32,000 nt of DNA from Gemmatimonas aurantiaca T-27 (GCF_000010305.1 NC_012489.1:2021646-2053645), one strand, 5' to 3'. Positions 16,869-29,606 are shown, counted from the stretch's first letter. Notes: generated by a model from the letters alone, not told the origin. Made by a program: numbers and translations.

Positions 16869-17947
16869 CCGTACTCCCTGACCTGCTCGACTTCGACCCC
16901 GACGCGGCCCTGGCGCTGCTCGGTGAGTGGATGGCCGCGCGCGGAGAGCCCGCCTATCGGGCCGCCCAGGTGTTCGGTCGCCTTTGGCAGCGTCCGGTGC
17001 GCTCGTTCGATGAGATGACCGAGTTGCCCAAGGCGCTGCGCGAGGGGCTGGCGGGTTCGTTCCGCATCACCGCCCTCGAGCTGACCACGCGGCAGAAGTC
17101 GATGGATGGGACGGAGAAGTTTCTGTTCCGCATGCACGACGGGCAGTTGATCGAAACGGTGGCCATTCCCGACGGTGATCGCCTGACCTTCTGCATTTCG
17201 TCGCAGGCCGGCTGTGCCCTGCAGTGCGCGTTCTGTGCCACCGGGGCGATGGGGTTCCAGCGCAACTTGCATCCCTCGGAGATTGCCGGTCAGGTGCGTG
17301 AACTGCGCATGCTCACGCCGTCCATCGTGCCCACCAACATCGTGTTCATGGGCATGGGGGAGCCGCTCATGAACTGGAAGGCGGTGAGTCCCACGCTGTC
17401 GCTGCTGAATGATCCGCGTGCCCTGGGCATTGGCGCGCGGCACATCACGATTTCCACGGTGGGTGTACTGCCCGGTATCGTGGCACTCGCGGCCCGTCCG
17501 GAACAGTTCCGGCTCGCGATCTCCATTCATGCCCCGTCGGATGCGCTGCGGCGCACCCTGATGCCGGTCAACACGAAGTATCCGCTGGCCGACGTCATCG
17601 CGGCGGCACGGGAGTTCGACCGTCGGGTGACGTTCGAATACGTCATGCTGGGCGGCGTGAACGATCAACCGGAACACGCGGCGCAGTTGGCACAGTTGGC
17701 CCGCGATTGCCGTGCCTTCGTGAATCTCATTCCGCTGCATCCGGGTGGCTCGATGGGTTTCTCCCCATCCACCACACCAACCATCAACGCCTTCGCCAAG
17801 GCGATTCGCGCGCGTGGGGTGGAAACGGCGGTGCGCCGCAGCCGCGGGCTCGATATCGCCGCGGCCTGTGGTCAGCTACGGACGGAGCGGCTCGGTCGGC
17901 GGCTGCCAGTCGCGGCCCAGGACCACGGTGAGGTCCACGTAGCGTGA
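16865..17947 (+). CDS. rlmN: 23S rRNA/tRNA (adenine-C2)-methyltransferase RlmN (radical SAM)
   Basis: 360 aa. Radical-SAM cluster motif CISSQAGCALQCAFCATG, plus NIVFMGMGEPL and ACGQL near the C-terminus. GTG start at 16865 overlaps the upstream TGA (GTGA). Confidence 0.9.
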   Translation: MTVLPDLLDFDPDAALALLGEWMAARGEPAYRAAQVFGRLWQRPVRSFDEMTELPKALREGLAGSFRITALELTTRQKSMDGTEKFLFRMHDGQLIETVAIPDGDRLTFCISSQAGCALQCAFCATGAMGFQRNLHPSEIAGQVRELRMLTPSIVPTNIVFMGMGEPLMNWKAVSPTLSLLNDPRALGIGARHITISTVGVLPGIVALAARPEQFRLAISIHAPSDALRRTLMPVNTKYPLADVIAAAREFDRRVTFEYVMLGGVNDQPEHAAQLAQLARDCRAFVNLIPLHPGGSMGFSPSTTPTINAFAKAIRARGVETAVRRSRGLDIAAACGQLRTERLGRRLPVAAQDHGEVHVA

Positions 17948-18385
17948 CGTGTCGGTGCTGGGCGTGATCTCTCCCACGCCCAGCGCCCGCTGCAGACGCT
18001 CGGCCCATGGGGCGTGACCCGTGTGCACGAGGATTTGCGTGACCGGACGCTTGGCGTCGCGCTCGGAGTCGTAGTCCACCACGTCGTAGCCAAAATCGCG
18101 CAGCACCAGCGTGGCCCGTCGTGCGAGCCCCCGTACCCCCGACGCATTCACCACGCGCACCATCACGCGCGTGTCAGCGGGCGGCCTCGCCGTGCTGTCC
18201 TGGACGGACACTGTTGACGACGGTGCTGCTGGTGCGGCATCTGCCGCCGGCTGCGCAAACTGCCACCAGGCGAACGCGGAGCCCGCTGCCACGACCACCA
18301 GCACAACGACGGCCAACAGCCATCCACGTCGCCCGCCACCGCGTGATTCGGGAGGTTCAGGCCAGGTTGGAAACCCGTGCGTCAT
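17876..18385 (-). CDS. LytR_C domain-containing membrane-anchored protein
   Basis: 169 aa. N-terminal TM segment WLLAVVVLVVVAAGSAFAWW, a low-complexity linker, then VRVVNASGVRGLARRATLVLRDFGYDVV...VVLGRDW, typical of the LytR C-terminal domain. Confidence 0.7.
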   Translation of the reverse strand: MTHGFPTWPEPPESRGGGRRGWLLAVVVLVVVAAGSAFAWWQFAQPAADAAPAAPSSTVSVQDSTARPPADTRVMVRVVNASGVRGLARRATLVLRDFGYDVVDYDSERDAKRPVTQILVHTGHAPWAERLQRALGVGEITPSTDTSRYVDLTVVLGRDWQPPTEPLRP

Positions 18386-18394
18386 TGCCGGCGG

Positions 18395-18958
18395 TCAGCG
18401 GATCTGGTTCCAGAGCGCCACCGTTTCGGGCGACAGTCCCTTGCCTTCGCGGATGGTCCACTCGAGGCGCAGACGCACAACTTGTCGAAAGACCGCGTCA
18501 AAATCGTCGGCAACCCGATCGGCCAGGAACGCCCGATCGGTCTGCATGAAGTTGCGCCCGGGTTCGAGGAAATCGGCCATGAAGAGCGCCCGTCCTGTTC
18601 GGTACCAGTCGAGCGATCCGACAGTGTGCCACCGAATGGCATCGAGCACCGACTGACGCTCTTCGCCTTCAGCAGCGAGTCGCAGCGCCGCAGCGGGGCC
18701 GTGCAACATGCCAAAGGGCCGTTGTTGGTCGCCGGTTGCGGCCCGCAATGTCGGTTCATCGGCATCGCGCAGGGCGTCGTGCCACCGCCCCGCATCCACC
18801 CACGCACGACGCTCTTCGGTCGATAGAGACAGCTCGTCGGCCCATCGTTCGAGCAACGCGACCACGCGCTGAATGTGCGCGCGGCGCTTCTCCGTCACGA
18901 CCGCCCATTCCGGCAACACCACGGTGGTTGCCGATGGTGTGGTGTGATCAGCGCTCAT
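18395..18958 (-). CDS. HD-domain phosphohydrolase, YqeK-like
   Basis: 187 aa. H...HD pattern (RRAHIQRV, GRWHDALRD), followed by LHGPAAA, IRWHT and LFMADFLEPGR, which parallels YqeK-type HD hydrolases. The start overlaps the trpA end by 11 nt. Confidence 0.6.
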   Translation of the reverse strand: MSADHTTPSATTVVLPEWAVVTEKRRAHIQRVVALLERWADELSLSTEERRAWVDAGRWHDALRDADEPTLRAATGDQQRPFGMLHGPAAALRLAAEGEERQSVLDAIRWHTVGSLDWYRTGRALFMADFLEPGRNFMQTDRAFLADRVADDFDAVFRQVVRLRLEWTIREGKGLSPETVALWNQIR

Positions 18959-19763
18959 CGAGGGCCGCGCGCAGCGAACGCGTCAGCGCGATGGCATCTT
19001 CGATGGAGCGGCCGGCCGCACGCACCAGCGCACTTCCCACCACCACGCCATCACCCAGGGCGGCAGCGGCCTTGGCATCAGCAGGCGTGGAAATGCCAAA
19101 ACCGATGCACAGTGGCAGCGAGGTGGCGCTGCGTAGACGCTGCACGGTGACCGGGAGATCGTCAGGGAGCGAGTCACGCTCACCGGTCACGCCGAGTCGG
19201 CTGATGAGATACACAAAGCCCCCGCCGTGCCGGGCGATCTCCGCCATGCGCGGCGCCGGGGTGGTCGGCGCGACCAGACGCACAAAATCGAGACCGCTCG
19301 ATCCGAACCAGGCTTCGCGCTCGGGGTCGGCACCAACCGGCAGGTCGGTAGCCAGCACACCATCAACCCCCGCCGCGCGGGCGCGACGCAACACATCGTC
19401 CCCACCGGCCAGGATGGGATTCAGGTAGCTGAACAACACCACGGGCACATCGAGGCCCGCTTCCTTCACGATGTCGAGCGTGCGGGACAGCGTGATACCG
19501 TGTTCGAGCGCGACCTGTGAGCTGTGCTGAATGACCGGACCATCGGCCATCGGATCGGAGAACGGGACGCCCACCTCGATGACATCCGCTCCCGCTTCGG
19601 CCAGCCCACGCAGCAATTGCACACTGGAGGCCGGGTCCGGATAACCGGCCGTGACATAGCAGACGAGTGCCTTTCGACCTTCGGCGGCCAGTGCGCGAAA
19701 CCGCGCAGTGAGGCGCGACGGAGCGGAGACGTCAGGCGAAGTGGTCGCCGATGCTGATGCCAT
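18948..19763 (-). CDS. trpA: Tryptophan synthase alpha chain
   Basis: Track ORF trimmed to ATG 19763, giving 271 aa. ALVCYVTAGYPD and EVGVPFSDPMADGPVIQ (catalytic region), then GFGISTP. The start lies 32 nt inside the 3' end of the HD-GYP gene. Confidence 0.9.
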   Translation of the reverse strand: MASASATTSPDVSAPSRLTARFRALAAEGRKALVCYVTAGYPDPASSVQLLRGLAEAGADVIEVGVPFSDPMADGPVIQHSSQVALEHGITLSRTLDIVKEAGLDVPVVLFSYLNPILAGGDDVLRRARAAGVDGVLATDLPVGADPEREAWFGSSGLDFVRLVAPTTPAPRMAEIARHGGGFVYLISRLGVTGERDSLPDDLPVTVQRLRSATSLPLCIGFGISTPADAKAAAALGDGVVVGSALVRAAGRSIEDAIALTRSLRAALDER

Positions 19764-21186
19764 AACGGTGCGGATCCTCGGTGCGAATGATAGAGCGAAC
19801 AAACTGGCCAGACGCATCGCGCGCCGTAAGGTCCATCAGTTGTGCGGTGTTCTGCACCGGGTTGCCACGCTCGTCCATCAGGATGCGAACCAGCGGACGC
19901 GACAATGCCGCCGCGTCGGGATTGGCGGCCATCACCAGCGCGATTTCGAAGGTATCGAGCACCACGACCGTGCCAACCGGGTAGATACCGGTCAGGTTGA
20001 TGAACGCCTTCACCACCACCGGATCGAGCCCCAGGCGGGGATTGTCGCGCATCCCCCGCAGCACATCGGCCGGCGTCCAGGGCGCATCCTGATACACGCG
20101 GCTCGTCGTGGCGGCATCGAAGCCATCGGTGACAGCGATGATCTTCGAGAACATCGACAACGTGCGAGGCCGCACCAGCCGCGGATAACCAGAGAGATCG
20201 GTGCGCATGTGATGTTCGTAGGCGGCCGACATGGCCCGCCAGGGACGTGTGGCCACACCGGGAATGCCGAACAGCGCCAACACACCCTGCCAGGTGTGCG
20301 ACTGCAGCAGCAACCGTTCGTCCTCATCCAGTTCGCCGCGCTTGTTCAGCAGTTCGAGCGGCACACGCGACTTGCCCAGGTCGTGCAGCAGCGCCGCGAG
20401 GCCGAGGTCGAGCAGTTGCAGCTTGGCCAACCCCAGCCGACGGCCGAGCGCGACCGACATGATGCACACGTTCACGCTGTGCACAAACGTGTATTCGTCG
20501 AAATCCCGGAGCGTGGTGAGCCCCATCAGCGAGGTCGAATCGGTGAGAATCGAATCGACAATGCCCTGCACGGCGCGCTTCACACGCTTGAGGCTGGGGC
20601 TCTTGCCCAACCGCGTGGACGTGATGATCTCGCGCGTGACGTCGAGCGAGCGCACATAGGTCTGCCGGGCGCGTTCCTTGGCATCGAGTTCGGCCTCTTC
20701 GCGCACGCCTTCTTCCAGCGGCGGTGAGAGTTCGAAGTCGGCCACGCGGGCCTGTTCGAGTCGCGCCGTGAGCTGCGCCAGACGCTCTTCTTCGGGATAT
20801 TCGAGCGGCGGGGACTGGAGGAAAGACAGCAACACCACCCAGGCGCGCGGGTCGGGACGGCCGACCAGCACGATGCCCCCAATGCCCGCTTCCCGGAACA
20901 GCCCGAGCAACGACGCCACGGCCGCATAGTTGTCGAACGACAGTCGCAACCGCGTTTCGTTCACGAAAAGAAAGTCGCCAATTCTCCGCAGCGCACATTC
21001 GTCTTCGTCCTGCCGCACGCGTTCGGCGCTGTTCCCCAGTTCGGCGATGGCCCGCTGGACAGCGGCGTTTTCGATGGGGTACAGGCGTACCGCGCGCACG
21101 GCGCTGTTCATCGCCACGATGAATGCCCGTGCGTGTTTCTGTGCCGCTGCGCCGCTGCTCTGGTCGGCCATCGCGCCTGTGCCCAT
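19732..21186 (-). CDS. HD-GYP domain protein (predicted cyclic-dinucleotide phosphodiesterase) with an uncharacterised ~200-aa N-terminal domain
   Basis: 484 aa. All HD-GYP landmarks are intact: HSVNV, LLHDLGK, QSHT, EHHMRTDLSGYPR, and VTDGFDAATTSRVYQ. The ATG at 21186 shares 1 nt with the upstream TAA (TAATG). Confidence 0.85.
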   Translation of the reverse strand: MGTGAMADQSSGAAAQKHARAFIVAMNSAVRAVRLYPIENAAVQRAIAELGNSAERVRQDEDECALRRIGDFLFVNETRLRLSFDNYAAVASLLGLFREAGIGGIVLVGRPDPRAWVVLLSFLQSPPLEYPEEERLAQLTARLEQARVADFELSPPLEEGVREEAELDAKERARQTYVRSLDVTREIITSTRLGKSPSLKRVKRAVQGIVDSILTDSTSLMGLTTLRDFDEYTFVHSVNVCIMSVALGRRLGLAKLQLLDLGLAALLHDLGKSRVPLELLNKRGELDEDERLLLQSHTWQGVLALFGIPGVATRPWRAMSAAYEHHMRTDLSGYPRLVRPRTLSMFSKIIAVTDGFDAATTSRVYQDAPWTPADVLRGMRDNPRLGLDPVVVKAFINLTGIYPVGTVVVLDTFEIALVMAANPDAAALSRPLVRILMDERGNPVQNTAQLMDLTARDASGQFVRSIIRTEDPHRYGISIGDHFA

Positions 21187-22883
21187 TACTGACCGCCTCG
21201 CATGGCGCGCGCCACGGCGTTGCGCACCACCAGATCTTTCGTGTCTGCGGCGCGCTGCAACGAACCCATGGCCATCGGGGTGCCGATCAGCCCCAGCGCC
21301 CGCGCGGCACAGGCCCGGATCTCGGCATTTTCCTTCGCGCCCAACAGTCCGCGTGCGTTCAGCAGTGTGTCGAGTTCATTCACGCCCGAGTTGCCACACA
21401 GACTGCCAAACGCCTCGAACAGCGCCATCTTTTCGCCCAGGTCTGCACTGCGGGTCTCCTTGCGCCGAATGGCATCGAGCAGGCGCGGCAAGGCGCCGCC
21501 ATGTTTGCGGGTGCCGATGGCGCGATAGGTGGCGACGCGCACATCACGATCCGCATCGTCGATCGCGCGCTCGAGTGCCTGCAGGGCGCTGGGTGAGCCG
21601 ATGTCAGCAAGCACCCCCACCGCTTCGGCGCGTATCTGGGCTTCGGCGACACGCAGCAGCCGGGCGAGACCGGGCACCGCTGCGGCCGTACCCAACTGAG
21701 CCACCAGGCGGAGCGCGCCTCGCACGACCGCTTCCTTGGGATGCTCGAGCAAACGATTCAGTTCGGCCGTGTGTGCCCCCGCCAATCGCAGCGACGCACG
21801 CTCGATGGACGCTCGGGCCGGCGACGCGCTCGCGCCACCGAGCCAGGACACCAACGGTTCCAGCGCTTCGGCACGCAGCTCGGTGAAGAGTCCTTCGAGC
21901 AAGGATGCCACCGGCGTGCGCCGGCTTTCATCGAGCGCGTGCAGCAACTGCGCCACGACCTGCGGTTCACTGAGGCGACCGGGGAGCGCTTCCAGCGACT
22001 GCACCAGCGCCGGTCCAAGTTGTGGCCGACGTGCGGTGGTCGCCGCCTCGCGCAGCACATAGGCGACCAGCTCATAGTCACCCAGCGTGAGGAACTCGAT
22101 CACCAACTGATCGAGAATGCCCAGCACTTCGCGCTGTGCTTCCTCTTCGGGACGCGTCTCGAGAATGTCGAAAAGACTGGCCAGGACCAGCCGGCGTTGA
22201 TCCTCGGTGTATTCGCGGCGCAGTTCGTCCTGCAGGTACGCCGTTTCGCGCTGGTCGAGGAAGTAGAGCGTGGTGTCGAAGTTCTCGACACGCACCATAC
22301 CAGGCGGCCCCTCTCCCGGAGGCTGCGTCTCGGCGGGTGGTACGGCCAACGGCGCCTGCCCTGGCGCAAAGCTCGCCACACCGGGGCGGTCGCCCGACGA
22401 CATGAGCATGGGCTCCGCCGCATTGCCGACATCCACGTACCGATACGTGACATGGCCCAGGTCGGCCACCCACAGCATGGTCACCAGATCATCGTCATCG
22501 TTCGCCGCCGCTCGTGCGCGCTGCAACAGCGACAGCAGCGCCTCGAGATCCTGCTGCTCACATCCTGGCTGAAACGCCATCGCGCGCAGTCCATCGCGAT
22601 GCATCAACCAGGGCAGCGATTCGGTTCCGCGATCGGCGTCCTGAAACACGGTGCGCCCTTCCCACAGGAACGACGCTTCCTGCACCTGCAATTCGAGCAC
22701 CGACTCGTGCGCCCAGATCTTCGCAAACGCGGTGCGCGCGAGTTCGAGACTCTGCCCGCGCGCGGGATTGTTCGGCAGGTAGAGCTGCACGGCACGAAAC
22801 GCCTTGGACATCGCCCGAAGCGCGTCCTCGATCGCGGAAACTGCCTGCGGCGATGGCGTGGTGTCGTGAACAGCCATGGTCAT
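21186..22883 (-). CDS. HEAT-repeat (PBS-lyase-like) protein with an N-terminal domain paralogous to that of the downstream HD-GYP protein
   Basis: 565 aa. The C-terminal ~230 aa contain repeated units (AVPGLARLL...[41 protein letters not shown]...ALPRLLDAI...[40 protein letters not shown]). The ATG at 22883 forms an ATGA overlap with the trpB stop. Confidence 0.75.
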
Positions 22884-24103
22884 ACGTCAGGCAGCGTGTG
22901 CTGGCTGATGGTGCCCACGTCCTTGTCGCCGCGACCGCTCACGCACAGGAGGACGGGCTCGTCGGCCTGCCACCGACCAGCCGAACGCTCCACCCAGGCC
23001 ACGGCATGTGCCGTCTCCAGCGCCGGAATGATGCCCTCGAGGCGGCTCAGCACGGCCACCCCACGCAGCGCCTCGGTGTCGGTGACCGAATCGTAGAGGG
23101 CGCGGCCACTGTCGTGCAGCCACGAATGTTCGGGGCCAACGCCGGGGTAGTCGAGGCCGGCCGAGATGGAGTGCGCGGGGTGCACCTGCCCGGCCTCGTC
23201 CTGCAGCAGGTAGCTGAGCGAGCCATGCAACACACCAGGCGTGCCCTTGGTGATGGAGGCGCTGTGACGATCGGTGTCGAGACCGTCGCCGGCGGCTTCC
23301 ACGCCAACCAGTTCCACGTCGGCGTCCTGAACGAACCCCGAGAAGATCCCCATCGCGTTCGAGCCGCCACCAATGCACGCTACCACGGTCTTCGGCAGGC
23401 GACCCGCCCGTTCGAGCATCTGCGCGCGGGATTCGCGGCCAATCACCGACTGGAACTCGCGCACCATCCGCGGATACGGCGCCGGGCCGACTACCGAACC
23501 GATGATGTAATGGCTGTCATTCACAGTGGTGACCCAGTCGCGGATGGCTTCAGTGGTGGCGTCCTTGAGCGTACGCGTACCCGCTGTCACCGGCACGACC
23601 GTCGCACCGAGCAGACGCATGCGGAAGACATTCAGCGCTTGGCGCCGCATGTCTTCCTCACCCATGTATACGACGCACTCGAGGCCGAATCGGGCACAGA
23701 TCGTTGCCGTGGCCACACCGTGCTGCCCGGCGCCGGTCTCGGCGATGATGCGGCGCTTGCCCATGCGACGGGCCAGCAGCGCCTGCCCCACCGTGTTGTT
23801 GATCTTGTGCGCGCCCGTGTGATTCAGGTCTTCGCGCTTGAGCCACACCGGGGCGCCAATCCGCTCGCTGAGTCGTGGGGCAAAGGTGAGCGCCGTGGGA
23901 CGGCCCACGTACTCCCGCAGCAAACCATCCAGTTCGGCGCGAAAGGCGGGATCGGCGTTGGCTGCATCAAACGCGATATCGAGCGCGTCGAGGGCCGGGA
24001 TCAGCGTCTCCGGCACGTACCGACCGCCGAACGGCCCGAAGCGATCGTTGGCCACCGTCCCGAGTGTCGAATTGCCCGCCATGTCGCTCTGCTCCACCGT
24101 CAT
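22880..24103 (-). CDS. trpB: Tryptophan synthase beta chain
   Basis: Track ORF (535 aa) trimmed to ATG 24103, giving 407 aa and an ATGA overlap with the trpF stop. [10 protein letters not shown], the PLP-lysine motif [11 protein letters not shown], and [12 protein letters not shown]. Confidence 0.95.
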
Positions 24104-24798
24104 GCCTGAGTCTCCACAGCGCCGCGCGCTGCCATCACAAACTGTTGCACGCGCTCCGGATCCTTCACACCAGGCGCCACTTCCACGCCGGAAGATACGT
24201 CTACCACCTGCGGCGACAGCAGTCCGATGGCGGCGGCCACGTTTTCGGGACGGAGACCGCCGGCCAGTACCAACTGCACCGGCGTGGCCTGCCGGAGCGC
24301 CATCACCGAGGCGCGCAGCCCGGACCAGTCGAGCGCGACCCCGGTGCCGCCGAGTTGTCCGACGACGTGGGCATCCAACACCAAAGCACCTGCGGTTTGG
24401 GCGAGCGCTGCGGCGTCCTTCGGCAGTTCCTGACCGGCCACGCGCAGCACCGGCCACACGGTGCGTCCCGTGGTGTCCCGGAGCCAAGCGACCATCTCGA
24501 CGTATGAGCGACCGTTCGTCGAGGCATGCCCATGCAACTGCATGACATCGAGGTCGAGTGCGTCCGCGATCGAAACGATTTCTTCCGCCGACTGGTCACC
24601 GAACACGGCCACTCTTTGCACACCCTGACGACGTGGGCCAAGCACGGAACGGGCCGCGTCCACCGTCAGTAACCGAGGGCCTCCGGCCAGGATCACGCCC
24701 AGATAGGACGCGCCCTGCTGTTCGGCGTGTTCGGCATCCTGCGGGCGTGTCAGTCCGCAGATCTTGATACGGACCGGAGAGATGGGGGCGGAGGTCAT
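24100..24798 (-). CDS. trpF: N-(5'-phosphoribosyl)anthranilate isomerase
   Basis: 232 aa. [14 protein letters not shown] and YLGVIL, plus operon position between trpC and trpB. Confidence 0.85.
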
Positions 24799-24816: not shown

Positions 24817-25662
24817 TCAGCGACGGGCGGTGGCATGACGGGCAATCGCGGCCAACGCACGCACCTGGGCTTCCGGATCGGTTGCCGTAGAGACCGCGCT
24901 GCCAACCAGTACGGCATCGGCGCCGGCATCGCGGGGCGCGTGCAGATCGTCCGGCTGCTGCATGCCACTCTCCGCCACGGCCACCCGATCGGAGGGGATG
25001 TGCGGAATGATGGCCGGCGCCGTGGCCGTATCGATGACCAGTGATTCGAGATTGCGATTGTTGACACCGATGACCGAAGCGCCAGCGGCCAGCGCCCGTT
25101 CGAGTTCGACGAGATCGCGAATCTCCACCAGTGGTTCGAGTCCGATCTCGCGTGCCGTGTCGATCAGCAGTGGCAGCAGCGAGGGGGCCAGTGATCGTAC
25201 GATCAACAGCGCCGCCGAAGCACCGGCCGCGCGAGCCTCCCACAACTGGACGGGGTGCACGAGGAAGTCCTTGCGGATCACGGGCACCTGCACGGCAGCA
25301 GCGACCGCTTGGAGATCTTCGAGGGACCCACCAAACCGCGTTGGTTCGGTCAGTACCGAAATCGCCGCTGCCCCGCCCCGCACGTACGCCTCGGCCTGGC
25401 CCACGGCGTCCAGTCCGGGGGCGATCGTGCCCTTGGACGGCGACGCGCGCTTCACCTCCGCGATGACCCGGAGATGTGGCCCCGTGAGGGCCTGGTGGAA
25501 AGGCACGACGGGTCGGGCGTCCCGCGCCACCGCCTTCAGGGCTTCGAGGCGGTCGGCGACCGCCATCGCCCGGGCGTGTGCCTCGCGGGTGAGCTGTCCG
25601 AGGGTGCCTTCAGGTTCGGTCCAGACGGGTGTTTCGGGCGTCTTTGAAGAAAATCCTTGCAC
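24817..25662 (-). CDS. trpC: Indole-3-glycerol phosphate synthase
   Basis: 281 aa with a GTG start at 25662. VIAEVKRASPSKG, ISVLTEP, PVIRKDF, and IGVNNRNL. Confidence 0.9.
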   Translation of the reverse strand: MQGFSSKTPETPVWTEPEGTLGQLTREAHARAMAVADRLEALKAVARDARPVVPFHQALTGPHLRVIAEVKRASPSKGTIAPGLDAVGQAEAYVRGGAAAISVLTEPTRFGGSLEDLQAVAAAVQVPVIRKDFLVHPVQLWEARAAGASAALLIVRSLAPSLLPLLIDTAREIGLEPLVEIRDLVELERALAAGASVIGVNNRNLESLVIDTATAPAIIPHIPSDRVAVAESGMQQPDDLHAPRDAGADAVLVGSAVSTATDPEAQVRALAAIARHATARR

Positions 25663-25715
25663 TTCGGCCTGTCTTCGGTTAGCGTGGCGGGTGATGCTCT
25701 TCGGCCTGTTTTCGG
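25658..25715. promoter_or_regulatory. Two 21-bp direct repeats, TGC(A/T)CTTCGGCCTGT(C/T)TTCGG, giving four (C/T)TTCGG hexamers with 11-bp phasing inside each repeat; candidate operator in the trpC/lexA divergent region
   Basis: Copy 1 is 25658-25678 and overlaps the trpC GTG start. Copy 2 is 25695-25715, ending 35 bp upstream of the lexA ATG. The copies match at 19 of 21 positions. Hexamers start at 25662, 25673, 25699 and 25710. The repeat is certain; the function is inferred. Confidence 0.45.
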
Positions 25716-25749
25716 GCTCGGCCGGTACCCCCTCTCAAGTGGAGCTCCC

Positions 25750-26358
25750 ATGCCGCTCACCAAGCGACAGCGCGAAATTCTCTCGTTCCTCTCCGAGTAC
25801 AACGAGGTCAACGGCTATGCGCCCAGCTTCGAGGAGATCGCGTCGCAGTTCAACTATAACTCGCTTGCGACGGTGCATGAGCATCTGACCAACCTCGAGC
25901 GCAAGGGGTACATCAAGCGCTCGTACAACGAGAGCCGCGCCATCGAGATCCTGCCGTCGGAGATCTACCAGCGTTCGGTGGAGTTACCGCTCCTGGGTTC
26001 TGTGGCGGCCGGTGCACCCATCGAAGCGGTACACAGTGGCGAGACGATGGCCGTGCCCGACGGGTTCTTGCGCCGGAACGGGAGTCACTATGTCCTGCGG
26101 GTGCGTGGCGACTCGATGATCGAGGAGCATATCCGCGACGGCGACTTTGTCGTGATCAACGACAAGCAGGCAGCCGACAACGGCGAAATGGTCATCGCCC
26201 TGCTCGATGGCTCGGGGGCTACCGTGAAGCGTTACTATCGCGAGCGTGATGGGCGCATCCGTTTGCAGCCAGCCAACGAAACGATGCAGCCGCTGTTTGT
26301 CCACGAAGACGACGTCCGCATCCAGGGCATCGTGGTCGGGGTGTTGCGCCGCTATTGA
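25750..26358 (+). CDS. lexA: LexA repressor (SOS regulator, S24 autopeptidase)
   Basis: Track ORF trimmed to ATG 25750 (GGAG lies 5 nt upstream), giving 202 aa. Winged-helix N-terminus MPLTKRQREILSFL, cleavage site VAAGAP, catalytic Ser in RVRGDSM, and Lys in ATVKRY. Confidence 0.9.
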   Translation: MPLTKRQREILSFLSEYNEVNGYAPSFEEIASQFNYNSLATVHEHLTNLERKGYIKRSYNESRAIEILPSEIYQRSVELPLLGSVAAGAPIEAVHSGETMAVPDGFLRRNGSHYVLRVRGDSMIEEHIRDGDFVVINDKQAADNGEMVIALLDGSGATVKRYYRERDGRIRLQPANETMQPLFVHEDDVRIQGIVVGVLRRY

Positions 26359-26365
26359 ATGAGTC

Positions 26366-26393
26366 GGCGCGCCTGAAACCGATCAGGCGCGCC
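26366..26393. terminator. Stem-loop (11-bp perfect GC-rich stem, 6-nt loop) between the convergent lexA and trpD genes; probable bidirectional terminator
   Basis: GGCGCGCCTGA (26366-26376) pairs with TCAGGCGCGCC (26383-26393). The right arm includes the trpD stop codon. There are no clear U-tracts. Confidence 0.5.
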
Positions 26394-27420
26394 AGCGCTG
26401 GGAAGCGGCTCGCAGGCGTTCCAGCGCGGTGTATCCGACGCCCGCCGCCAATGCAGAACGGGTCTGTGCCACGGCGTCGGCATACGTCAGGTCGTCTCGG
26501 CTGACATACAGGGCCGCGGCGGCATTCAGCAGTACCGCCGCTTGTGCTCCTGTTGAACCCGCGCCCTGCAACACGGCCTCAATGATCTCCGCGTTCTGCG
26601 CCGGATCACCACCGGCCAGCGACTCGGCGCTGACTGCACCCACGCCAAAGGCGGCGGGATCAATGGTCCAGCGGTGCACCGCGCCATCGCGCGCCTCGCG
26701 TACCTCGGTCAGGCCCAGCGGCGAGATTTCGTCCACCCCCGGAGCGCCGTGCACGACCATCGCGCGTACCGATCCGAGCTGCATGAGTGCGTTGGCGAGC
26801 AACTCGAGGCGTGCGATTTCCGCCACACCCACCACCTGACGGCCGGCACGGGCCGGATTGGCCAGCGGGCCCACGATGTTCATCACGGTGGGCACGGCCA
26901 GTTCACGGCGAATCGGGCCCACGTGACGCAGCGCCGGGTGCATGAGCGGTGCGAACATGAACACAATGCCCGCCTCCTCCAGCGTGGCAGCCATGGCGGC
27001 GGGCGTGGTTTCGATCACGACGCCCAGTGCCTCCAACACATCCGCGCTGCCCGATCGGGATGTGAAAGACCGGTTGCCATGTTTCGCGACCCGCACACCC
27101 ATGCCTGCCGCCAACAGGGCGGAGGCCGTGGAGATGTTGAACGTCGTCAACGAGCCGCCGCCCGTGCCGCAGGTGTCCACCAATGCGTTCGGGTCCGCCG
27201 CCGGCAGCACCACCATGGCGTCGCGCAGCGCCCGCACCACGGCAGCCACTTCCGACGGCGTTTCCCCTTTCACTCGCAGGGCCATCAGCAACGCGGCCAC
27301 CTGGGCCGGGGTGCCCTCGCCACGCATGATCACCTTGAAGGCCTGATGCAGCTCTTCGCCATCCAGCGGCTGATGCAGCGCGAGCCGCCGAATGGCAACG
27401 GCCAACGCCTCAGCGGGCAT
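26383..27420 (-). CDS. trpD: Anthranilate phosphoribosyltransferase
   Basis: Track ORF trimmed to ATG 27420, giving 345 aa. DTCGTGGGSLTTFNISTASA and VAKHGNRSFTSRSGSADVLEALG. The start overlaps the upstream GAF gene by 11 nt. Confidence 0.9.
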   Translation of the reverse strand: MPAEALAVAIRRLALHQPLDGEELHQAFKVIMRGEGTPAQVAALLMALRVKGETPSEVAAVVRALRDAMVVLPAADPNALVDTCGTGGGSLTTFNISTASALLAAGMGVRVAKHGNRSFTSRSGSADVLEALGVVIETTPAAMAATLEEAGIVFMFAPLMHPALRHVGPIRRELAVPTVMNIVGPLANPARAGRQVVGVAEIARLELLANALMQLGSVRAMVVHGAPGVDEISPLGLTEVREARDGAVHRWTIDPAAFGVGAVSAESLAGGDPAQNAEIIEAVLQGAGSTGAQAAVLLNAAAALYVSRDDLTYADAVAQTRSALAAGVGYTALERLRAASQRWRA

Positions 27421-28720
27421 GCAGTGTCTCCAGCAGCGCCTGCGGCAACCCGTTGCGCGAGGCAATCAGCGAGATCACCAACCCGAGCAGACGCACACGC
27501 TCTACGTCTTCTTCGGTGTAAATCCCGCGTTGGGCCCGGTTGGTCAGGTTGAGCACACCCACCAGTTCGTCGTGATAGACGAGTGGGAAGCTGATGAAAC
27601 TGCCGGTGGTGAAGTACTGATCACGCAGCAGCGGATGCTGCGAAGCTTCCCGTACATCCTGCACCAGCAGCGGCTCACGGGCTGCCGCCACCCGGCCGGC
27701 CACGCCTTCGCCGATCCGGATACGCATGCCTTCCACGATGTTGGGCGCGATCCCGCGGGCGGCCGCCAGGTAGAGATGATCCGGCTCCGGCGCACGCAGC
27801 ATGAGCGAACAGCGCTGGGCCTGCATATCGTCGCCCACGAGGGCCAACAGCGCGTCCACCAGGGTACGCGCATCGGTGGTTTCGGCATCGAGTGACAACG
27901 CGCGATCCACCAGGTACAGCGTGCGGGTGCGCTGACGCAGGGCTTCGCTGCGCCGGTGCAGTTCGATGTGGGCCTGTTCGAGCTGGCCCACGGCCGACGC
28001 GAGTTGCTGATCGGCCAGCTCCGCCTTCCGACCCGCACGACGCATCTCCTCCTGCGCCCGCGCGGCATCGGCCTGCAGGGCGATGGCTTCGGCGGAGTGG
28101 AATGCGGTGACCTGGCGGGGCGTGTTGCGCACTTCGCGCAGTTCGGCTTCGAGCACCGAGAGCTTGCGCACGTATTCACCGTGCACGCGCTGGGTGACAT
28201 CCTCGAGCGTCCGCACGGCTTCTTCGCGGGCATCCCGCTCGGAGATGCGGGCATAGGCCAGGTCGAACAGCGCAACGGCCGGCGCAATCCGCTCGGTGGT
28301 GCGGGTGCCGAAGATCTTGCGTGGCTCGTACAGCGCCAGCACGGCCCCGAGTTGTCCCTCCACCCGAAGGCCTCGCAACGCCAGCACTCCGCCGTCCAGC
28401 GCCGTGGCAAAACCGCACAGGCGCGCGTAGTCGGCCGATCGGTCGGTGACGTCGAGAAATGGACCACCCGCCAGAATCCGGGCCCGAACCGGCTCAGGGA
28501 GGTGATCGAACGTGGTCTCGATACTGGTCCGATGCACCTGTGCGCCCACGGGGGTGTAGCGGTCCCGGAGCATGTCCCGGCGCGCATCGTAGTGGATGAG
28601 CGCTACGGAGGCCCCGCGATCGAGTTCGGCGAGGCATTCGCCGAGGGCGACGAGCGCGCCATCGAGGTCGGGGGACGCCGTGAGGGCGTGCGCCAGTGAT
28701 GCGAGGGAACGTGGGGGCAT
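27410..28720 (-). CDS. GAF - coiled coil - GAF protein with no recognisable output domain
   Basis: Track ORF trimmed to ATG 28720 (MPPRSLASLAHAL...); ATG 28759 is an alternative. The C-terminal GAF domain is clear (RCSLMLR...IGEGVAGRVAAAREPLLVQDV...SFISFPLVYHDELVGVLNLTN). The central ~100 aa are heptad-like and E/R/A/Q-rich. The N-terminal third looks GAF-like but weaker. Confidence 0.7.
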   Translation of the reverse strand: MPPRSLASLAHALTASPDLDGALVALGECLAELDRGASVALIHYDARRDMLRDRYTPVGAQVHRTSIETTFDHLPEPVRARILAGGPFLDVTDRSADYARLCGFATALDGGVLALRGLRVEGQLGAVLALYEPRKIFGTRTTERIAPAVALFDLAYARISERDAREEAVRTLEDVTQRVHGEYVRKLSVLEAELREVRNTPRQVTAFHSAEAIALQADAARAQEEMRRAGRKAELADQQLASAVGQLEQAHIELHRRSEALRQRTRTLYLVDRALSLDAETTDARTLVDALLALVGDDMQAQRCSLMLRAPEPDHLYLAAARGIAPNIVEGMRIRIGEGVAGRVAAAREPLLVQDVREASQHPLLRDQYFTTGSFISFPLVYHDELVGVLNLTNRAQRGIYTEEDVERVRLLGLVISLIASRNGLPQALLETLHAR

Positions 28721-28826
28721 GACGAGTGAAAGAGACGTGGAGAAAACGTCAGCGACCATCACAATGCAATGGGCGGCGCTTCGTGAGTTGAAGCGGACGC
28801 CCCCCTCGCCTAGCTTCCCCGCGCTT

Positions 28827-29606
28827 ATGGACCCGCGACCGATCCTCCTGGTAACCCAGTACGACGGGGGGCGATTCGCCGGCTGGCAGCGCCAGCCCGA
28901 CGTGCGCACCGTCCAGGGTGACATGGAGCGGGTCCTGGGGCGTCTTTCCGGGGGGCTGTACGTGCCTGCCGTGGGCGCCGGCCGCACCGACGCCGGGGTG
29001 CACGCCCACGGTCAGGGCGTTGGCGTGCGAATGCCTCCTCAGTGGACCGCCCCGCGGCTCCGGCGTGCCATGAATGCCTTGCTGCCCGACGACATCTGGG
29101 TGGCCGCGGCGTACCAAATGGAGCCGGAATTCCATCCCCGGTACAGCGCAACGGCGCGGCGATATGGTTATCTTATCGGGACGGATGAATTGGCCTCGTC
29201 GCCGTTTCGCCGTCGCCACGAATGGGCACTCCATCGCCCCCTCGATGTCGAAGCGCTGCACGGCGAGGCTGCTGAACTGCTGGGAGAGCACACGTTCCGG
29301 GCGTTTGCCATAGCTCATACGGCGCCGGTCGACGATCACCACCGCTGCATCATTCATCATGCGGCGTGGGTGCCTCGCGAAGGCGGCTGGGTGTTCGAGG
29401 TGTCGGCAAACCGCTTTCTCCATCACATGGTGCGATTCCTGGTCGGGACGATGGTCGATGTGGCGCTGGGGCGCCGTCCGCGTGGTACGATCGCGCGGCT
29501 ATTGGTCACACCCGACAACGCGGACACCTCCCCGCCAGCACCCGCGCACGGTCTGTCGCTGCGCGAAGTGACGTATCCCGCGGCGCTGTACGCACAGGAA
29601 GGCTGA
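28827..29606 (+). CDS. truA: tRNA pseudouridine(38-40) synthase TruA
   Basis: Track ORF trimmed to ATG 28827, giving 259 aa. LLVTQYDGGRFAGWQRQP and the catalytic-Asp motif GAGRTDAGVHAHGQ. Confidence 0.9.
   Translation: MDPRPILLVTQYDGGRFAGWQRQPDVRTVQGDMERVLGRLSGGLYVPAVGAGRTDAGVHAHGQGVGVRMPPQWTAPRLRRAMNALLPDDIWVAAAYQMEPEFHPRYSATARRYGYLIGTDELASSPFRRRHEWALHRPLDVEALHGEAAELLGEHTFRAFAIAHTAPVDDHHRCIIHHAAWVPREGGWVFEVSANRFLHHMVRFLVGTMVDVALGRRPRGTIARLLVTPDNADTSPPAPAHGLSLREVTYPAALYAQEG

Follow-up and report, generated by a model that had tools for sequence, protein, structure and literature searches.

An overlapping trp gene run in Gemmatimonas aurantiaca carries a conserved HEAT-repeat and HD-GYP gene pair between trpB and trpA

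A HEAT-repeat gene and an HD-GYP gene separate trpB from trpA

The genes trpB and trpA are a textbook pair, kept together as their products form one enzyme, and they are normally neighbours. In the DNA analysed here, a window of 32,000 nucleotides (nt) from Gemmatimonas aurantiaca T-27 (GCF_000010305.1, NC_012489.1:2021646-2053645; positions are counted from its first letter), the two are parted by a gene for a HEAT-repeat protein and a gene for an HD-GYP protein. All genes of the run lie on the minus strand. The tryptophan synthase beta chain is encoded by trpB at 22880-24103 (TIGR00263, 610.6 bits, cut-off 392) and the alpha chain by trpA at 18948-19763 (TIGR00262, 221.4 bits, cut-off 102). 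Both products, a TrpB1-type beta and a standard alpha subunit, are ordinary equivalog-level matches without extra domains. The first gene between them, at 21186-22883, encodes a HEAT-repeat protein of 565 amino acids (HEAT_2, 65.6 bits, cut-off 27.7) and is a 100% match to GAU_1722 of G. aurantiaca T-27; the second, at 19732-21186, encodes an HD-GYP protein of 484 amino acids (HD_5, 69.4 bits, cut-off 27.2), which also matches Pfam HD (32.9 bits, cut-off 22). The canonical adjacency of trpB stop and trpA start is absent from the window, where two genes and 3.1 kb (a cassette of 3.15 kb) come between the trpB stop (22880) and the trpA start (19763).

The run begins with trpC (24817-25662; Pfam IGPS, 245 bits), encoding indole-3-glycerol-phosphate synthase, which is followed by trpF (24100-24798; Pfam PRAI, 123.9 bits), encoding phosphoribosylanthranilate isomerase. 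At the other end, trpA is followed by a small HD-domain gene of 187 amino acids (18395-18958), whose product is YqeK-like (TIGR00488, 38.9 bits, below the cut-off) and also matches the C-terminal part of PRK07152 (2.6e-12); YqeK carries the family label of a diadenosine tetraphosphate (Ap4A) hydrolase.

From trpF to the small HD gene there is no intergenic DNA: trpF, trpB, the HEAT gene, the HD-GYP gene, trpA and the small HD gene overlap by 4, 4, 1, 32 and 11 nt in turn. Read directly from the minus strand, the trpB stop TGA and the HEAT start form ATGA (22883-22880), and the HEAT stop TAA and the HD-GYP start form TAATG (21188-21184). The HD-GYP/trpA overlap spans 19732-19763, with the HD-GYP stop TGA at 19734-19732 and the trpA ATG at 19763-19761, inside the HD-GYP gene. 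There the ATG sits out of frame within the HD-GYP codons R-Y-G (cgt tAT Ggc), and 11 nt 5' of it the codons T-E-D (acc GAG GAt) supply a Shine-Dalgarno (SD)-like GAGGA. Other starts are available at two of the genes: Met6 of the HD-GYP protein (21171), which would leave a 14-nt gap after the HEAT gene, and an in-frame trpA ATG at 19817, likewise within the HD-GYP gene. An earlier note made from the sequence had named the four genes from trpB to trpA and described these three junctions; the identities hold at scores above the family cut-offs, and the ATGA, the TAATG and the trpA ATG lying 32 nt inside the HD-GYP gene are exact.

In GenBank, GAU_1722 is a protein of 534 amino acids, its annotated start lying about 31 codons downstream of the ATGA start (region 22791-22883). 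We favour the longer frame with the ATGA start because residues 19-31 are invariant among homologs; the public annotation is probably too short and the 565-amino-acid open reading frame (ORF) the correct one.

The gene order recurs across related Gemmatimonadota loci

We surveyed 174 related loci in addition to the window, over which the identity of the HEAT protein falls from 90% to about 30%. These loci were sampled by similarity to the HEAT protein; Longimicrobiia and sister phyla lie outside the sample, and the denominators below are testable loci. An HD-GYP gene directly follows the HEAT gene in all 161 testable loci. Directly upstream of the HEAT gene lies trpB (150 of 159), and directly downstream of the HD-GYP gene lies trpA (119 of 126). 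The position of trpC upstream of trpF and trpB is also shared by related loci.

A pattern scan limited to one genome per species yielded 80 loci (L001-L080), all in assemblies assigned to Gemmatimonas, Gemmatimonadaceae, Gemmatimonadales or Gemmatimonadota, with one contig binned under another name. When eight window proteins were placed on them by tblastn, the order trpC-trpF-trpB-HEAT-HDGYP-trpA was found on one strand in every one of the 80 loci as far as the contigs reach, at HEAT identities of 90% to 40%. For a deeper search, the 380 non-HEAT residues of the HEAT protein were compared with 1.8 billion representative proteins, which returned 562 clusters at E <= 1e-10. The 112 full-length proteins were clustered, and one or two members were inspected for each of nine clusters. 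Six of the nine, which hold most of the sequences (down to about 35% identity), show trpD, lexA on the opposite strand and trpC-(trpF)-trpB-HEAT-HD_5-trpA, while three divergent clusters place the pair away from trp genes. In a metagenome scan that took the most divergent clusters as seeds, about 70 of 80 loci showed the trp context. In one large deep clade (L081-L085 and most of L097-L173), trpF is missing between trpC and trpB.

A gene arrangement is deterministic, so chance is not at issue, and its reality is shown by recurrence in at least 150 independent assemblies. Because the order recurs over the 174 related loci, it is not confined to one strain, the finding that the earlier note had named as grounds for refutation. 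Across the nearer loci the median identity is 70% for the HD-GYP protein, 76% for TrpA and 65% for TrpC; in the deep set it is 51%, 52% and 50%. By this measure, the HD-GYP protein evolves as slowly as TrpA and TrpC, which points to strong purifying selection.

Overlapping junctions suggest linked expression

Junction lengths were tallied for the window and the first 85 loci. An overlap of 4 nt (-4 nt) joins trpF to trpB in 54 of 67 loci and trpB to the HEAT gene in 71 of 80. Between the HEAT and HD-GYP genes the gap is at most 20 nt in 60 of 81 loci and never exceeds 65 nt, while the HD-GYP>trpA junction is exactly -32 nt in 49 of 70 loci and never above +79 nt. The -32 start is set out of frame in a conserved C-terminal motif of the HD-GYP protein, R-(Y/H)-G-I (cgN tAT Ggc). 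Of 73 loci, 53 have an ATG at this embedded site; in the others the codon reads TAC (11 loci) or TGG (9 loci), and trpA has its start at another position. The use of TAT at the site (80%, versus 44% elsewhere in the same genes) was considered as strong independent evidence, a view then toned down, as the exceptions are phylogenetically clustered.

ATGA- and TGATG-type overlaps are associated with coupling, those of the ATGA type with coupling by termination and reinitiation (PMC6728339). Since the junctions leave no room for a conventional promoter or terminator, a single transcript with linked translation suggests itself, and the natural reading is that trpF, the YqeK-like gene and the four genes between them are co-transcribed and translationally linked. 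This part of the earlier note's idea of obligate co-expression thus stands as a natural and well-supported reading of the overlaps. Internal promoters or terminators that might decouple the cassette had also been considered there; in a sigma-70 and terminator consensus scan from 17.5 to 27.5 kb, whose consensus may not suit this phylum, promoter-like sites numbered 0 and terminator-like sites did not exceed expectation. An Rfam scan of the window found neither a leader nor a T-box or riboswitch. Upstream of the run, the 88-bp divergent region between lexA and trpC (25663-25750) is the one sizeable stretch of non-coding DNA, and as no other non-coding DNA is available, the operon promoter probably lies there.

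The HEAT and HD-GYP proteins share an N-terminal domain

The AlphaFold2 (AF2) model of the HEAT protein has a mean predicted local distance difference test (pLDDT) score of 83.6 and falls into four parts, in which an N-terminal domain (residues 12-149) is followed by a disordered linker (153-206), a helical region in the middle and the HEAT repeats at the C-terminus. The repeats, encoded at 21198-21734 on the minus strand (residues about 384-562), form an alpha-solenoid of paired helices at pLDDT 93-97, with the best HEAT_2 stretch at residues 408-476. Searched against the PDB with Foldseek, the model recovered generic solenoids only (alphaRep, E = 1e-6; armadillo).

The N-terminal alpha/beta domain of the HEAT protein (residues about 8-152; 22428-22862, minus) aligns with that of the HD-GYP protein (residues about 10-160; 20707-21159, minus; AF2 pLDDT 80-94). 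Earlier comparisons of the two proteins had been weak, BLASTP being insignificant and hhalign on shallow alignments giving 34% probability. With profiles widened by distant loci, hhalign found the two domains homologous at a probability of 96.8% (E = 3e-10 over 115 columns; reversed control, E = 0.061). Their secondary-structure order in the AF2 models is largely alike, the HEAT copy having one extra strand and a short extra helix, and the shared domain measures about 120-150 amino acids. Pfam searches at E up to 10 with the isolated N-domains and with the C-terminal domain found nothing credible, nor did a PDB profile search with the N-domain return a match. Because the N-domains are paralogous and the adjacency of the two genes is invariant, we argue that the paired proteins may act together.

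The HD-GYP protein is a predicted cyclic-dinucleotide phosphodiesterase

The catalytic domain of the HD-GYP protein (residues about 230-400; 19987-20499, minus) aligns with the motifs of PmGH and V-cGAP3. Its best phmmer matches are V-cGAP3 (5z7c, 4.8e-18), PmGH (4mcw, 2e-15) and PA4781 (4r8z), and Foldseek against the PDB returned HD-GYP structures only. The metal-ligand set H236, H268-D269, H297, H325-H326 and D354 is in register with both PmGH and V-cGAP3, and the HH pair is followed by the GYP motif G333-Y334-P335, in the window protein within the segment EHHMRTDLSGYP. Each of G333, Y334 and P335 is invariant in 75 of 75 loci. The catalytic residues are kept in 72-75 of the 75 loci and the set is fully intact in 72, so that the apparent catalytic integrity claimed beforehand is borne out at the level of residues. 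In L025, L058 and L087, Phe or Tyr takes the place of the HD-dyad His with the other catalytic residues kept, and these three enzymes may be catalytically impaired. The HHE of classical HD-GYP enzymes reads HHM, HHK or HHL in this family, with HHM in the window protein, and an acidic residue is conserved at position 231 (66 E, 8 D, 1 A). C-terminal to the catalytic domain, the AF2 model has a small beta domain of about 85 amino acids. We found no Response_reg match in the protein, as a receiver domain of the RpfG type would give.

On these grounds, the protein is predicted to be a cyclic-dinucleotide phosphodiesterase, with cyclic di-GMP (c-di-GMP) as the most likely substrate. G. aurantiaca has further c-di-GMP components, such as GAU1030, a GGDEF-HD-GYP hybrid (PMC2952852).

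The pair persists without adjoining trp genes

In about 12 loci, HEAT and HD-GYP genes occur with neither trpB nor trpA beside the pair. A separate receiver gene adjoins the pair only in two of these, standing before the HEAT gene as a stand-alone gene in L086 and after the HD-GYP gene in L098. Elsewhere the pair is followed by a low-molecular-weight (LMW) phosphatase gene (L087), preceded by DUF3187 (L092 and L095) or preceded by BatD and TPR genes (L114); L093, L096, L100, L133 and L158 likewise have no adjoining trpB or trpA. The most telling locus is L094, on a 382-kb contig (JGI 3300055048), which keeps the neighbourhood of the trp context without any trp gene: purC-purB-htrA-truA-lexA lie on one strand and HEAT-HD-MCP-folK-small HD-LytR_C on the other, and trpD, trpC, trpF and trpB as well as trpA are all absent within 13.7 kb. 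Either the trp genes of this lineage have moved elsewhere or it is a tryptophan auxotroph. The unit that is always kept is the HEAT gene with the HD-GYP gene, and it persists in place without adjoining tryptophan synthase genes.

The operon itself is mixed. In deeper clades, folB, folK, panB and panC come after trpA, ahead of the small YqeK-like HD gene and LytR_C. These folate and pantothenate genes are gone from the position in G. aurantiaca, where trpA overlaps the small HD gene, which is followed by a LytR_C ORF (17876-18385, minus). Since the operon is functionally mixed, membership of the trp run is by itself no sign of a role in tryptophan synthesis.

Two further observations concern the same neighbourhood. 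The small HD and LytR_C genes are a syntenic pair across the phylum loci surveyed. In one large clade (L081-L085 and most of L097-L173), a gene of about 680 amino acids with an MCP signal domain directly follows trpA, its product in L084 and L085 matching GAF and MCPsignal in Pfam; it is a second signalling gene within the same biosynthetic operon.

A proposed entrenched module and its rival explanations

On balance, we think it rather probable that the tie of the cassette to tryptophan biosynthesis is one of expression only, an old and self-contained module having become entrenched in a housekeeping operon. In this account, a two-gene signalling module would have lodged once between trpB and trpA, in the ancestor of most of the sampled Gemmatimonadota, and would have been inherited vertically since then within a polycistronic trpC-(trpF)-trpB-HEAT-HDGYP-trpA-...-yqeK-like-lytR_C unit. 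Its transcription would begin, like that of the whole operon, in the lexA-trpC region, and its translation would be linked to that of its neighbours by ATGA termination-reinitiation at trpB>HEAT and by the trpA start, with its SD-like GAGGA, inside the HD-GYP gene. The HEAT and HD-GYP proteins would cooperate through their shared N-domains, as a heteromer or as sensors of a common ligand, and the joint module would hydrolyse a cyclic dinucleotide, most likely c-di-GMP. There would be no physical or catalytic partnership with tryptophan synthase, co-expression being the whole of the connection. As the start codon and SD-like sequence of trpA sit in cassette coding sequence, the module would be hard to lose, and the arrangement would be kept by this entrenchment plus strong purifying selection on the module itself.

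Several points weigh against this explanation. Sampling through the HEAT protein would miss relatives that have an adjacent trpBA and lack the module. The loci outside the trp context may be paralogs in the same genomes and not relocated orthologs. Promoters inside coding sequence are possible, and the consensus used in the scan may not suit the phylum. For a HEAT/HD-GYP complex, the evidence consists of adjacency and shared domains. Within the HD-GYP protein, the third-metal Glu of PmGH, which has a trinuclear site, aligns with Tyr232, one residue after the conserved acidic position, and AF2 models the catalytic domain poorly (pLDDT 35-70). Finally, so deeply conserved a position between trpB and trpA could reflect selection for joint function; on sequence alone, co-expression with the trp genes may be adaptive or frozen.

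That last point leads to the reading in which the coupling is adaptive and the phosphodiesterase is usefully made whenever the trp genes are transcribed. Limitation for tryptophan or other amino acids might then raise the phosphodiesterase, lower c-di-GMP and shift behaviour, or the shared N-domains might sense tryptophan, indole or serine. The depth of conservation of the position with its overlaps kept, the interleaving of trpA translation signals with HD-GYP coding sequence and a purifying selection on the HD-GYP protein as strong as that on the trp enzymes would all fit, and signalling genes recur in the operon, because in one clade the MCP-domain gene, of the chemoreceptor signalling type, follows trpA. 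But no trp-specific regulatory element was found, the window having no Rfam match, the sole upstream non-coding DNA is shared with lexA and its motif (described below) tracks lexA even without trp genes, the module persists in L094 and in unrelated contexts, and the N-domain resembles no known ligand-binding family; we regard adaptive coupling as possible, if unlikely. Still harder to reconcile with the loci is a direct partnership, in which the HEAT protein, the HD-GYP protein or both would bind, scaffold or regulate TrpA-TrpB or moonlight in tryptophan synthesis. Genes that remain neighbours over great distances often interact, HEAT solenoids serve generically as scaffolds for binding proteins, and genes inserted in trp operons have been speculated to aid the pathway (PMC2395257). 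Yet the pair is intact where trpB and trpA are non-adjacent or missing from the locus, the invariant pairing joins HEAT to HD-GYP (161 of 161) and neither of them to TrpA or TrpB, the two synthase subunits are ordinary, and the operon neighbours are functionally heterogeneous, all of which makes such a partnership very improbable. The moonlighting regulator of the synthase proposed in the earlier note accordingly found no support, and the functional link it drew between tryptophan synthesis and cyclic-dinucleotide signalling is not backed by a self-standing pair, by L094 or by the mixed operon. We give little credence to the most novel form of such a link, in which the paired N-domains sense indole, serine or tryptophan, or contact TrpA-TrpB, and cyclic-dinucleotide turnover is hard-wired to synthase flux.

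The HD-GYP protein might instead be inactive, a degenerate receptor or scaffold as is thought for Bd1817, or might act on a substrate other than a cyclic dinucleotide. The change of HHE to HHM, HHK or HHL, the shifted position of the third-metal Glu, the replaced His in three loci and the presence of Bd1817 (3tm8, 342 aligned columns) among the structural matches covering most of the protein all lean that way, but every other metal ligand and the complete GYP motif are kept without exception in the 75 loci and the best sequence matches are the proven phosphodiesterases V-cGAP3, PmGH and PA4781, so that we hold inactivity to be improbable. As for an insertion that is recent or limited to one strain, a mobile element or an artefact of assembly or annotation, we found nothing in its favour save the GenBank start of GAU_1722, which leaves a gap after trpB, and that is answered by the invariant residues behind the upstream start. 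The same order in at least 150 independent assemblies, over protein identities from 90% to about 30%, together with the absence of strain-level patchiness and of atypical composition (GC content is flat across the region at 0.64-0.68, as in the flanks), leaves this with next to no likelihood. The earlier view that the cassette, which has no intergenic DNA of its own, is no recent insertion agrees with an order and overlaps kept across a large part of Gemmatimonadota.

Comparison with known systems

Like PmGH (4MCW), PA4781 (4R8Z), V-cGAP3 (5Z7C) and RpfG, the window protein has an HD_5 domain with H, HD, H, HH and D ligands and a GYP motif, and as in PmGH and Bd1817, a putative regulatory domain at the N-terminus precedes the catalytic domain. 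Unlike the known enzymes, it has no receiver, GAF or PAS domain; its N-domain matches no Pfam or PDB family and is duplicated in the neighbouring HEAT protein; HHM stands for HHE; and the beta domain of about 85 amino acids is an addition at the C-terminus. Bd1817 of Bdellovibrio (3TM8) shares the two-domain layout (Foldseek, 342 columns, TM score 0.53 normalised to the target) and has an N-terminal domain of unknown function. Its sequence similarity to the window protein is weak (E = 1.5e-5, residues 203-302 only), and its GYP is without the Tyr and it is regarded as degenerate (PDB title HDG"Y"P), whereas the GYP of the window protein is intact.

Compared with the coupled trpB-trpA of the E. 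coli type, the window has the same strand and operon, standard TrpB and TrpA and stop/start overlaps. Any coupling between the two genes must here cross two cistrons and 3.15 kb, however, and trpA starts 32 nt upstream of the preceding stop instead of at the stop. Unknown genes between trpB and trpA occur in some Burkholderia and Flavobacterium and on a Sargasso Sea contig, according to PMC2395257, citing Xie et al. 2003, where inserted trp-operon genes are said to be possible 'morons' or helpers of the pathway. The Burkholderia and Flavobacterium insertions are likewise genes of unknown role that break the elsewhere highly conserved trpB-trpA pair inside a trp operon. Compared by description, the present case differs from them in having two genes that form an obligate pair and include a recognisable signalling enzyme, in overlaps where those have spacers, and in conservation over a large part of a phylum.

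As kinds, trp-operon insertions and HD-GYP enzymes are already known. Neither the trpB-HEAT-HDGYP-trpA arrangement nor a pairing of HEAT with HD-GYP turned up in searches of the literature. What appears to be new is an overlap-stitched trpBA split by a putative signalling pair and conserved across much of a phylum, and a two-protein family, HEAT plus HD-GYP, whose always adjacent members have a common, uncharacterised N-domain. The locus would offer a natural case of a foreign module entrenched inside an essential operon, and of how far translational linkage stretches. The HEAT/HD-GYP family is a target for cyclic-dinucleotide research in a poorly studied phylum that is abundant in soil and freshwater. 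If expression of the pair follows the trp operon, metabolic state would be tied to second-messenger level by a simple route that can be tested; if the N-domains were indeed to sense pathway metabolites or contact the synthase, amino-acid biosynthesis would be linked directly to second-messenger signalling across much of the phylum.

The lexA-trpC region and genes upstream

Upstream of the run, a 525-amino-acid ORF with a C-terminal GAF domain (27410-28987, minus) lies directly upstream of trpD (26383-27465) and on its strand. As called, the two overlap by about 56 nt, and a GAF protein precedes trpD in L090 too.

A promoter of the trp-HEAT-HD operon must share the 88-bp region with lexA. The window holds two copies of the direct repeat TTCGG-N6-TTCGG between 25658 and 25750, the first of them inside a sigma-70-like promoter directed toward lexA, within the 17 nt that separate its TTGCAC from its TAGCGT. 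Of 120 lexA-adjacent intergenic regions in related loci, 96 contain two copies of CGAA-N7-CGAA about 27 nt apart and a further 22 contain one, against a background of 0.17 per kb. The TTCGG repeats are a candidate for the LexA operator of Gemmatimonadota, and the motif is also present in the lexA region of L094, a locus without trp genes.

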